DNA of 63,968 nt, counting the filler, from Thraustochytrium aureum (lineage: Eukaryota): the NCBI GenBank assembly GCA_012862495.1. It is 9 parts of 6 records of this genome, joined end to end, with 100 filler letters (N's around TTAATTAATTAA, not from the genome) between each part and the next. Parts side by side here need not be neighbours in the genome. Positions count along the whole stretch, not along the records: positions 24,532 to 36,461 come from BLSG01000367.1; 8 more parts are not named here. One strand, given 5' to 3'. The translations under genes were made by a program, and so were the position numbers. Under the pieces are notes generated by a model, which was not told where the DNA came from, did not search any database, and saw only the letters and a program-made list of their open reading frames with translations. Of the stretch, positions 29,821 to 32,663 are shown one piece after another. The number at the start of each line of letters is the position of its first letter. Position 1 is the stretch's first letter.

Positions 29821-30703
29821 TTAGAGCTTGTTGGCGCCTACGCGATCGTCCCCATCAGAGGACCCGCCCGTGCTGCCCTNNNNNNNNNNNNNNNNNNNNN
29901 NNNNNNNNNNNNNNNNNNNNNNNNNNNNNNNNNNNNNNNNNNNNNNNNNNNNNNNNNNNNNNNNNNNNNNNNNNNNNNNNNNNNNNNNNNNNNNNNNNNN
30001 NNNNNNNNNNNNNNNNNNNNNNNNNNNNNNNNNNNNNNNNNNNNNNNNNNNNNNNNNNNNNNNNNNNNNNNNNNNNNNNNNNNNNNNNNNNNNNNNNNNN
30101 NNNNNNNNNNNNNNNNNNNNNNNNNNNNNNNNNNNNNNNNNNNNNNNNNNNNNNNNNNNNNNNNNNNNNNNNNNNNNNNNNNNNNNNNNNNNNNNNNNNN
30201 NNNNNNNNNNNNNNNNNNNNNNNNNNNNNNNNNNNNNNNNNNNNNNNNNNNNNNNNNNNNNNNNNNNNNNNNNNNNNNNNNNNNNNNNNNNNNNNNNNGT
30301 CCCGTTGCCTCCCCCCCCTCTTCGTTGCCCTTGCCTTCGGGCCCTTTCTCCTCGTCGCCTTTCTCACCGTCGCCTTTGCGCCGCTTTGGCTTTGGCGGCG
30401 TGCGGAAGAAGACGCAGGAAGTGCGGCAGGTGGCTTGCTTGCCCCGGACGCGCTTACGTTCGTGCACAGGTCGTAGCCAGGGCAGCACACTACCGCGTCC
30501 AGGTCAGCTTCGTCATCAAACCGAACTGGCGGGTCTGAGGGCGTCTGGCAGTCTGCAAGCACACGGAGCGCCTCGTGGGCAGCCGCGCTGGCCAGGCTTG
30601 GCGACTTGACGGGGGCTGCGCCTGGCACGCCGGCAGGCGAGCCTCCTGCAAGCACTGCTGCCAAGACTGCGGGCACGAGAGCGACGAGATGCAAGAGCAT
30701 CAT
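29821..30703 (-). CDS. Six-cysteine secreted/type-I membrane protein, paralog 1 (frameshift near 30443; TM region presumably in gap 29880-30298)
   Basis: Signal peptide, LRVLADC..SDPP..VCCPGYDLC..CRTSC..KPKRRK. Probable C-terminus ...DRVGANKL* at 29821 resembles the paralog ends. Confidence 0.65.
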
Positions 30704-31204
30704 CCTTGTCGCTGTTTTTGCACCCTCTTGGCTGCTGTTCTGGCTTCGTCGTTGTCAGCGTTCAGAGACTGGTTGGGACACTTCGAGTCACACTGGTCCG
30801 AGGCTAAGAAGCACGTGCGAGTTGAGCCCTCCAGAGGCCAAAGCATCCTTTGAAGGTCTCGCCAGAGCTCGCTTCAGAGAGCTGAGAGCAAGAGGAGTGC
30901 ATGCGCCGTGCTCTGCCGCATGTCGGATCCTCCTTGTCTGCCATCTATCGATAGATAGAGAGCCAAGCGAGCGCCCGGGGTTGCCAAACACGTGGGATCG
31001 CTCTGCCAACGCAGCCAACTCGAGCAGGCTCGAACAGACAGCGCCCTCGCCAGAACGGCGACGCCAATGGAAACAGCCAACCGCGCCATCTCACCATACC
31101 AGGAGAACCCGGCCGAGGCCTCTGTCCACCCTGATGGTGCAGTTCTGGGGCATGAAGATTTGGTTTGAAGTATGTGTAGTAGGCCTATAGAAGCTGAGTA
31201 GGTA

Positions 31205-31690
31205 CTACAGCTCCGCGTTGCCGCGCTTGCGATTCCGACGTCTGTAGAGGAATACGCCACCGGCGGCCGCCGCCACACCGGCCCCGACGCCGCCGATGAT
31301 CGCCCCCGTGTTGGGGCTTTCGTCGTCATCCTTTTTGCCCCCGCCGGCGGATTTGCGCTTCTTGCGCGCGTTCGCCGTGAGTTGGCACGAATCGGCGCAG
31401 TGGATCAAGAACGCGTTTGCCGAGGCGTTGAAGCTCATGCACGCTTCGAGGCCCTCGCAGCATGCGACTGGATTCGAGTCGGAGAAGGGCATCGGCGGAT
31501 CTGCGGATGTCGAGCACTCGGCTAGGGATCGAAGAATCGAGTGCCTGTAGGGGTCGGCGTCGTTGATGACGGACGGCATCCCGCTGGGCACTTGCGCGCC
31601 TTGCGCTTCCTGCTCTCGCATCGCTTGACTCGGGCCCTGCGCGGCGGCTGCTGCGGTTGCGCCGAGGGCCACGACGCGAATGAAGTGCAT
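31205..31690 (-). CDS. Six-cysteine type-I membrane protein, paralog 2 (intact, 161 aa)
   Basis: Signal peptide MHFIRVVALGATAAAAA, LRSLAEC..ADPP..ACCEGLEAC..CADSC, RKKRK, TM GAIIGGVGAGVAAAAGGVFLY, RRRNRK, ends NAEL. Confidence 0.85.
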   Translation of the reverse strand: MHFIRVVALGATAAAAAQGPSQAMREQEAQGAQVPSGMPSVINDADPYRHSILRSLAECSTSADPPMPFSDSNPVACCEGLEACMSFNASANAFLIHCADSCQLTANARKKRKSAGGGKKDDDESPNTGAIIGGVGAGVAAAAGGVFLYRRRNRKRGNAEL

Positions 31691-31786
31691 CGTCAAGCTT
31701 GGGTTCGGGTTCGGGTTCGGACAAGACTGCGCTGGTTTCAGGTCTGCCACGCCTTGGCCTGGTATGTTGCGAAAACCTCCGAGCTA

Positions 31787-31850
31787 GCACAAGCAGCAGA
31801 GTACTGCTCGAGGACTTTGTGCGTGCCACAAGCAGAGTACTGCTCGAGCA
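31787..31850. repeat. Short direct repeat cacaagcag(cag)agtactgctcgag x2 upstream of paralog 2
   Basis: Two copies seen, each with a gcag-agta-ctgc hairpin core. Confidence 0.65.
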
Positions 31851-32098
31851 CTTACTGAGTGCCACTGCCGGCCTCACAAACAAAACAGCGCTTGGTATGA
31901 CGCACGAGCCGAACGTTCTGGGCCGTAATCAAGCCAACTGCTCTCTTCAAACACGTGCGACGAGTTTGCTGCTGCCCTGAAACACACCCGCCGCACGAGT
32001 CACTGGCCAAGTCGGATCGGTGCTCCGTGCTCTGGCACAGATGGAGGAATTACTCAACCACAATCGAAAGGCTTCTTTTCTATAAAAATAAGACGTTC

Positions 32099-32663
32099 TC
32101 AGAGCTTACCAACGGCGACGTCGTCGCTCCATTCATTGTGGGGTTGGCTGCGCTTGCTCCGACGGTAGAGAATAACACCAATCAGGCCAGCCGCAGCAAC
32201 AGAGCCGCCCACCACAGCGCCGGCGTTGACGCCGCCACCTTGAACGTCCTCCGCATCCTCCTCGGCTGGCTCGTCTTTCTTGGGCCCTTTTTTGCGTCCT
32301 CCTTGCCGTCGCCGCCCCCACTTTGCGCTTCTTGCGCGCTCGCACCAGGTTGCTGCACTCCGCGCGGCATTGGGCGCCAAGCGCGCCAGACGGCGTTGTT
32401 GTCATGCACAGCTCGAGCCCGGGGCAGCACGAAACTTGGTCGCTCTCCGCATCCAGAACAGGGATGGGCGCGTCCGTCGCGGTCATGCAATCTGCGAGCG
32501 CGCGAAGGGCTCCAATGTCACTCTCAGCCAGCCCGGGACCACGCACCGGGGCCACGCTCGGTACGCCGGCTGACGAGTCGGCTTGGGTGATCATGCTGCT
32601 CGAGTGGACTGCAGCCAAAGCGACGACTGCTGCCACGACACCACGGAGTAGACAGCGCGCCAT
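32099..32663 (-). CDS. Six-cysteine type-I membrane protein, paralog 3 (frameshift(s) at 32285-32325)
   Basis: Signal peptide, LRALADC..TDAP..SCCPGLELC..CRAEC, RKKRK, then shifted frame TM AGAVVGGSVAAAGLIGVILY-RRSKR, ends VGKL. Confidence 0.8.

Follow-up and report, generated by a model that had tools for sequence, protein, structure and literature searches.

Three tandem six-cysteine proteins of Thraustochytrium aureum as candidate membrane-anchored peptide precursors

The growth-factor precursors proTGF-alpha and HB-EGF consist of a pro-region, a six-cysteine module, a stalk, a membrane helix and a short tail with a hydrophobic last residue, and it is their ectodomain that is shed; EGF modules as such are beta-rich, are shed by ADAM proteases and show the spacing C4-x-C5, and knottins carry their adjacent cysteine pair at C3-C4. 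Diatom silicanin-1 (Sin1) is a type I protein with a signal peptide, 30 residues ending in RRL, a cysteine-rich domain, a helix and a 20-residue tail, and its luminal part appears to be released (PMC5525289), and diatom wall proteins shed a propeptide that ends in RXL (PMC5647440). The pheromones of Euplotes are small, acidic, disulfide-rich proteins made from pre-pro precursors, Er-1 having three helices and six cysteines (PMC9542385, PMC9229436), and the oomycete RXLR and Plasmodium RxLxE/D/Q motifs are confined to about 40 residues past the signal peptide and are cut after the Leu (PMC11754927). Here, a trio of tandem genes of Thraustochytrium aureum (assembly GCA_012862495.1) is compared with these systems. 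The window, that is, the whole stretch of DNA that was analysed, comprises 63,968 nucleotides, filler included, and the trio sits inside the piece 24532-36461 (BLSG01000367.1), where all three paralogs lie on the minus strand at 30299-30703, 31205-31690 and 32099-32663 (copies 1, 2 and 3). Judged by their sequences, they are a real, undescribed small family and a predicted variant of the membrane-anchored peptide precursor.

Paralogy and predicted anatomy of the trio

The three genes are real paralogs with a coding type of divergence. Pairwise alignment scores of 140, 195 and 195, with breaks in the frame read as X, were matched by none of 1000 shuffles for each of the three pairs, and the same holds for the scores of 92-143 obtained after masking the cysteines; the three diverged paralogs of the original prediction are thereby borne out. 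Between copies, identity is 43-47% in the six-cysteine domain, 20-43% in the signal peptide plus pro-region and 29-47% in the part after the domain. Within the domain, the copies agree at 59-69% of first and second codon positions and at only 35-45% of third positions, and identical residues are written with different codons in 12 of 21, 12 of 24 and 13 of 23 cases across the pairs. Such third-position drift, together with different codons for the same residues, is as expected of old duplicates under selection at the protein level.

Signal peptides and membrane helices were called from sequence and hydropathy (KD19), with the ends of the signal peptides estimated by eye, and the precursor anatomy claimed earlier holds up in the order of its parts: a hydrophobic N-terminus (KD19 2.51, 1.12 and 2.01 in copies 1-3), a pro-region, LRxLA(D/E)C, a six-cysteine core, a basic cluster, a charged stalk, a Gly/Ala helix and a Leu-ended tail. 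The pro-segment, of about 30-38 residues, is rich in Ala, Pro, Gly and Ser and contains (V/M)P. It is followed by LRxL, which is invariant across the copies together with the next A and C, and the RxL stands at positions 47, 54 and 54, that is, about 30-40 residues past the signal peptide. The D..P pair, CCxG...C and Cx3C are likewise common to all three copies, within a cysteine spacing of C-x(17-20)-CC-x5-C-x(12-13)-C-x3-C. From the RxL to the first basic pair there are 52, 53 and 57 residues (5.3-6.0 kDa), with 6-8 D+E against 0-5 K+R and an isoelectric point (pI) of 4.05-4.36. LRxLA(D/E) had not been mentioned in the original prediction as a candidate N-terminal cut; it would set the product at 52-57 residues.

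In every copy the first cysteine lies three residues past the RxL, and behind the last cysteine the polybasic site begins after 6-9 residues and the first basic pair after 7-10. The basic cluster reads RKKRK in copies 2 and 3 and KPKRRK in copy 1, so that the polybasic site claimed earlier stands as a cluster with a KR/RR dibasic in all three copies, but as the furin consensus R-x-K/R-R in two only, copy 1 having just KR/RR. The stalks are rich in Lys, Asp, Glu and Gly; the Gly/Ala helix ending in LYRR is seen in two of the three copies, that of copy 1 presumably falling in an assembly gap, and the tails of 12-21 residues end in NKL, AEL and GKL, both features just as first described. At the nucleotide level, copies 2 and 3 share an exact stretch of 18 bases over the polybasic site (31352-31369 and 32322-32339), set against a third-position likeness of 14-44% elsewhere; this might be due to chance, to biased codon use or to gene conversion over a short tract.

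Copy 2 (P0001, 31205-31690, minus) is intact and encodes 161 residues. Its RxL motif, R-S-L followed by A-E-C, lies at 31523-31531 and is a candidate cleavage site; the six-cysteine domain (31367-31522; 52 residues and pI 4.05, with a single sequon for N-glycosylation and a three-helix model of low confidence) is followed by the polybasic site RKKRK (31352-31366), which fits the furin consensus, and by a predicted transmembrane helix ending in LY (31244-31303; KD19 1.93) with a basic tail of 12 residues ending in AEL. Copy 3 (32099-32663, minus) encodes 188 residues once two breaks of a single base each, near 32293 and near 32317, are bridged. Here the RxL motif is R-A-L followed by A-D-C (32496-32504), a candidate propeptide cut, and the domain of 53 residues and pI 4.05 (32337-32495), again with a low-confidence three-helix model, precedes an RKKRK that fits the furin consensus (32322-32336) and a predicted Gly/Ala-rich transmembrane helix (32165-32224; KD19 2.08), after which come a basic stop-transfer stretch and a tail of 21 residues ending in GKL.

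Copy 1 is represented by its first 135 codons (30299-30703, minus), which cover signal peptide, pro-region, domain and stalk, carry one single-base break near 30440-30450 and continue into the gap. Its RxL motif is R-V-L followed by A-D-C (30557-30565), likewise a candidate cut, its domain of about 55-57 residues (30393-30556; pI 4.36, one sequon) is read with X at the break, and its polybasic site KPKRRK (30375-30392) holds the dibasic KR/RR and no R-x-K/R-R. The gap of 419 N (29880-30298) is the presumed home of the remaining stalk and the membrane helix, and on its far side an acidic C-terminal tail (29821-29879, minus), NKL and then a stop, resembles the tail of copy 3 and would belong to copy 1. 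The gap had been suspected of hiding extra sequence: it is about 300 bases longer than the missing helix requires, yet below a whole gene (486-567 bases) and thus too short for a fourth one if its stated size is right.

Reading frames, relatives and predicted fold

In the window, copy 2 alone of the trio forms a single open frame; to read copy 3 the frame must be changed twice and to read copy 1 once, and these breaks in copies 1 and 3 had gone unmentioned in the original prediction. Four public runs (X1-X4) were compared with the window at 30299-33300, at a depth of only 2-6; X2 and X3 gave identical numbers, are apparently the same data set and were counted as one. In copy 3, both breaks are filled in contigs of X1 by a single additional base, placed behind 32293 and behind 32317, and X2/X3 has an extra base at the first break and, at the second, a loose end with an extra base. 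In copy 1, two records exceed the window by one base within 30373-30522: X1 record 1, with 225 letters against 224, and X4 record 17, with 151 against 150. A single X1 contig spans copy 2 with one listed substitution and no insertion or deletion within the gene. As the extra bases in independent contigs restore each frame, errors of assembly are the likeliest cause of the breaks in copies 1 and 3. Elsewhere in the window, EF1-alpha (4129-4968, plus) and a helicase-like gene (19847-22002, plus) also lose their frame mid-gene; that the helicase and EF1-alpha, an essential gene, do so indicates that this draft assembly, which has many gaps, is prone to insertions and deletions. A 20-base intron starting with GTAAGC was considered for mending the frame of copy 1 and was rejected, since related DNA has one extra base at that place; the +1 reading, moreover, gives a cysteine spacing of 12 residues as in copy 3.

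Among 40 of the 45 substitutions, 13 fall in coding sequence, and one of these was dropped as part of an insertion or deletion. The remaining 12 comprise three silent and nine residue-changing ones, all nine outside the domain, although the distant runs barely cover the domains and the placement is therefore weak; it points to little constraint on signal peptide, pro-region and stalk. Just past the stop of copy 2, at 31168-31198, X1 differs at 11 bases with several insertions or deletions, a patch that is either of low quality or variable between strains.

The collections searched for relatives were mostly prokaryotic and cover the host lineage thinly. A word-indexed search with copy 2 among proteins of 47-282 residues gave no relative among 1568 candidates, and a search with the three-copy alignment over the same range of lengths gave none among 7991 scored. 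Four matches of phmmer, out of 1.84 billion representatives, were rejected as long repetitive proteins with scores summed from weak stretches. Pfam and NCBIfam hold no domain family for the trio (no Pfam match at E<=1); the PDB sequence search, which short divergent peptides can escape, gave best E-values of 0.063-7.6 and no pheromone at E<=10; and in the ESM Atlas the best score of copy 2 was 0.80 and the domain of copy 3 had no usable match. Contig scans confirmed none of 108 metagenome, 126 viral and 21 prokaryote stretches, and a looser DNA pattern of cysteine spacing reached 18 viral and at least 119 metagenome loci, all of which failed against the profile, with best E-values of 0.07 for metagenome and 0.31 for viral loci. 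The three matches of this looser pattern in the window, against none in shuffles, are circular and were not used as evidence. Exact look-up, a weak test that requires identical starts, found none of eight window proteins in the collection, and in four files of the supplement to PMC12221091 the motif turned up once, by chance. In the literature covered, which leaves most subscription journals outside, nothing relevant was found on labyrinthulomycete pheromones or on thraustochytrid cysteine-rich secreted peptides.

Overall, the earlier statement that no family is recognisable held in profile, sequence, structure and contig searches. Eukaryotes commonly have secreted, cysteine-rich orphan proteins in tandem, and sampling of the lineage is thin, so that missing relatives say little by themselves; given this coverage, the mostly prokaryotic collections and a neighbouring gene that is also an orphan, the absence supports "undescribed" and not "unique". 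A sortase anchor was entertained as well, as copy 2 reaches the cut-offs of NF033846 and TIGR01167 over the helix and basic tail only; it was ruled out, since the PxTG of LPXTG/NPXTG proteins is missing from copy 3 and the host is not a bacterium but a eukaryote, and the match is taken to be a generic one to a helix plus a basic tail.

Structure prediction, which had been proposed as a check, gave three helices at low confidence for the domains of copies 2 and 3, each modelled separately by single-sequence AlphaFold2. In both models the helices run over LRxLAxC, CC-x5-C and C-x3-C, and the first of them is followed by a long loop. Foldseek returned nothing at E<=0.001 from the PDB or from viral models. 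The best VIA Z scores, 5.0 and 5.2, were to unrelated helical bundles, with no pheromone among the 50 matches listed, which excludes nothing, and a homodimer prediction for the domain of copy 2 scored 0.00, evidence for neither side.

Proposed processing and release, and competing explanations

The trio could be understood, tentatively and with somewhat more doubt than conviction, as type I precursors that would be cut twice and would shed a disulfide-bonded peptide of 52-57 residues. Signal peptidase would take off about 18-21 residues, and a putative RxL protease, like those trimming diatom RXL, oomycete RXLR and Plasmodium PEXEL proteins, would cut after the Leu and leave A-(D/E)-C as the new N-terminus. 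The membrane helix and the short Leu-ended tail may guide the precursor through the Golgi, and a putative convertase of the kexin/furin type would cut at KR/RR, freeing an acidic domain of 5-6 kDa with three predicted helices and three putative disulfides. A charged stub of stalk and helix would remain, and the freed peptide would act outside the cell, most likely as a ligand.

Both candidate sites tightly bracket the cysteines in all three copies. Across 14 further reading frames of the window, with 6379 residues in all, RxLx[DE] occurs seven times and R-x-[KR]-R four times, that is, in about 3% of 25-residue and under 1% of 12-residue stretches, and this scarcity makes it unlikely that the pair arose by chance. 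Several points nevertheless weigh against a double cut. The looser motifs are common in the same frames, with 41 RxL (about 15% of 25-residue stretches) and 82 KR/RR (about 14% of 12-residue stretches); the three copies derive from one ancestor, so that each motif counts as one event and not three; and the stalks are rich in Lys, Asp and Glu throughout, which could make the basic cluster a matter of composition. The dibasic of copy 1 stands without the furin consensus of the other two, the signal peptide of copy 2 is weakly hydrophobic (KD19 1.12), and the models have a pLDDT of 59 and 61 and a pTM of 0.4. In both models the first helix covers LRxLA, so that packing may be the reason for its conservation, and RXLR motifs located within structured regions escaped cleavage in the cited study (PMC11754927). 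Further, the domain is the most conserved part of the trio, the opposite of what is seen in Euplotes pheromones.

As for the function of a shed peptide, an acidic six-cysteine product with three predicted helices, made from a pre-pro precursor, would match the Euplotes pheromones, and a ligand is therefore the guess that asks for least; even so, signalling to a receptor is the weakest step and, taken on its own, rather unlikely. Of the other roles raised in the original prediction, that of a cationic antimicrobial peptide is disfavoured by the net negative charge (D+E 6-8 against K+R 0-5), and that of a hypervariable tag of self and non-self is somewhat disfavoured, as no part of the proteins is better conserved than the cysteine domain. 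The most complete proposal is a pheromone or growth-signal family in a marine protist that lives as a heterotroph and is probably a stramenopile, in which an RxL protease and a kexin-type convertase would free three related three-helix peptides from a growth-factor-type precursor, convergent with the Euplotes pheromones, the uncut anchored form being possibly a receptor; as a whole, this is quite unlikely.

The trio could instead consist of surface proteins that stay on the cell, as an adhesin, a receptor or a coat of the cell or of the ectoplasmic net. LRxLA would then be structural, the basic patch would bind acidic polysaccharide, and any release would proceed through a sheddase or through a rhomboid-type protease inside the Gly/Ala-rich helix, a kind of helix that rhomboids prefer. 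Retention of this sort is possible, if somewhat unlikely: it is consistent with a first helix that spans LRxLA, with the K/D/E/G-rich stalks and with a copy 1 devoid of R-x-K/R-R, as well as with thraustochytrid walls of sulfated polysaccharide (PMC11642839) and with unannotated signal-plus-helix proteins of Aurantiochytrium that are candidate components of the ectoplasmic net (PMC12221091), but it leaves unexplained why an Arg cluster stands at a fixed spot behind the last cysteine in all three copies, with the rare consensus in two, and why the low-complexity stretch of 30-40 residues before the RxL resembles a propeptide. A different possibility keeps the same processing and makes of the product a silicanin-like component of wall or scale, the anchor bringing the domain into a vesicle that forms wall or scales, where it would be built in as matrix and not serve as a signal. 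The order of parts is that of Sin1 and the SAP proteins (PMC5525289, PMC5647440), labyrinthulid scales are of Golgi origin (PMC11642839), and the domain is conserved and not hypervariable; against this, it is compact, with 52-57 residues and no N/Q-, Ser- or Lys-rich repeats, unlike the 341-residue domain of Sin1 or the serine tracts of SAP proteins, and such a component appears improbable. In a labyrinthulomycete, the trio may have roles in wall and ectoplasmic net (PMC11642839, PMC12221091).

Defence would be another use for tandem, diverged paralogs that stand head-to-head with a secreted neighbour about 970 bases away: the peptides might be shed as antimicrobial or anti-grazer effectors, or the anchored forms might serve as decoys or immunity proteins for that divergent orphan of 597 residues, whose Gly/Ala-rich amphipathic stretch may resemble the hairpins of pore-formers. 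This is very improbable, given a net negative charge with a pI of 4.05-4.36, a domain that is not the fastest-changing part, and a neighbour that has no match in the databases searched and is linked to the trio solely by adjacency. Decay is more improbable still. It would make copies 1 and 3 pseudogenes in this strain and leave the trio without a present function as a set, in keeping with three frameshifts in the window and with 9 of the 12 coding substitutions changing a residue; yet independent contigs restore all three frames of an assembly that is prone to insertions and deletions, third positions of the domain have drifted most (35-45% against 59-69%), and the nine changes all lie outside the domain.

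Gene neighbourhood and comparison with known systems

On one side the trio is flanked by genes for mitochondrial L37, a kinase and a D-glutamate cyclase, the last a frame of the PF07286 family (24919-25743, minus) that adjoins the kinase gene on the same piece, and on the other side by the secreted orphan of 597 residues and then an ADP/ATP carrier. The genes of the window are intron-poor, with a G+C content of about 60%, traits that along with the character of the ADP/ATP carrier suggest a thraustochytrid-like stramenopile. An EF1-alpha fragment of the window pairs 171 of its residues with 181-182 in yeast and mammal but with 171 in archaea; the insertion typical of animals and fungi is thus missing, which places the host among eukaryotes outside the opisthokonts. 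Two seawater-metagenome contigs of 151 bases align to copy 1 without substitution, which indicates a marine organism. The orphan (33632-35425, plus) is an intact protein with a signal-like start and a cysteine-rich middle, transcribed divergently from the trio at a distance of about 970 bases, and it has no match in Pfam, NCBIfam, the PDB, the protein collection or plasmids. At about residues 135-190 it has a Gly/Ala-rich amphipathic stretch that may be similar to the hairpin at the N-terminus of pore-forming proteins of the Cry-like or jellyfish kind. Between it and the trio lies an 18/36-base tandem array (33165-33254), and a pair of 36-base repeats is found upstream of copy 2 (31795-31865). 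Further away, a dynamin-family GTPase with DUF4116 repeats (45383-48256, minus) and, near it, a tetratricopeptide repeat protein with a weak HET-like match at its N-terminus (49213-51723, minus; E 0.035, below the cut-off) are possibly concerned with innate defence. Rfam gave no match within the window.

If the trio does shed ligands, it would provide a concrete, synthesizable candidate of 5-6 kDa for signalling between the cells of marine decomposers, a group of great ecological extent. Processing of RxL propeptides, described from wall proteins of diatoms, effectors of oomycetes and exported proteins of Plasmodium, would then include a compact peptide with disulfides, and the trio could serve as a small substrate in the search for the RXL protease.

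Set beside the systems described at the outset, the trio fails one defining feature of each family and is accordingly assigned to none of them. From EGF modules and knottins it differs in its spacing (17-20/0/5/12-13/3) and in its adjacent pair at C2-C3, and there is no match to an EGF profile and the host is no animal. It shares with the RXLR and PEXEL proteins an RxLx[DE] that follows the signal peptide by no more than about 40 residues, an exact fit to the PEXEL pattern; these are soluble effectors for delivery into a host, with neither a disulfide core nor a C-terminal anchor, whereas the motif of the trio may lie in a helix and delivery into a host is not indicated. The likeness to Sin1 and the SAP proteins lies in a signal peptide, an RXL segment, a single helix and a short tail, found in the same order in copies 2 and 3 (PMC5525289, PMC5647440). 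In contrast, the Sin1 domain has 341 residues, is rich in N and Q and contains 18 cysteines and a juxtamembrane GGQKFAL motif (PMC5525289), compared with 52-57 residues, six cysteines and a polybasic site in the trio, and neither similarity of sequence to Sin1 nor any sign of silica biology is seen. With the Euplotes pheromones, the trio has in common an acidic core (pI 4.05-4.36) of six cysteines and 5.3-6.0 kDa, together with a putative processing; where the pheromones have an up-down-up fold of three helices, the two low-confidence models of the trio suggest three helices. The anchored forms of Euplotes, however, are type II splice isoforms, and the pheromones are alleles of one locus with a conserved pre-pro part and a variable mature part, whereas the trio consists of tandem paralogs with a conserved mature part and is anchored by a C-terminal helix encoded in the same frame.

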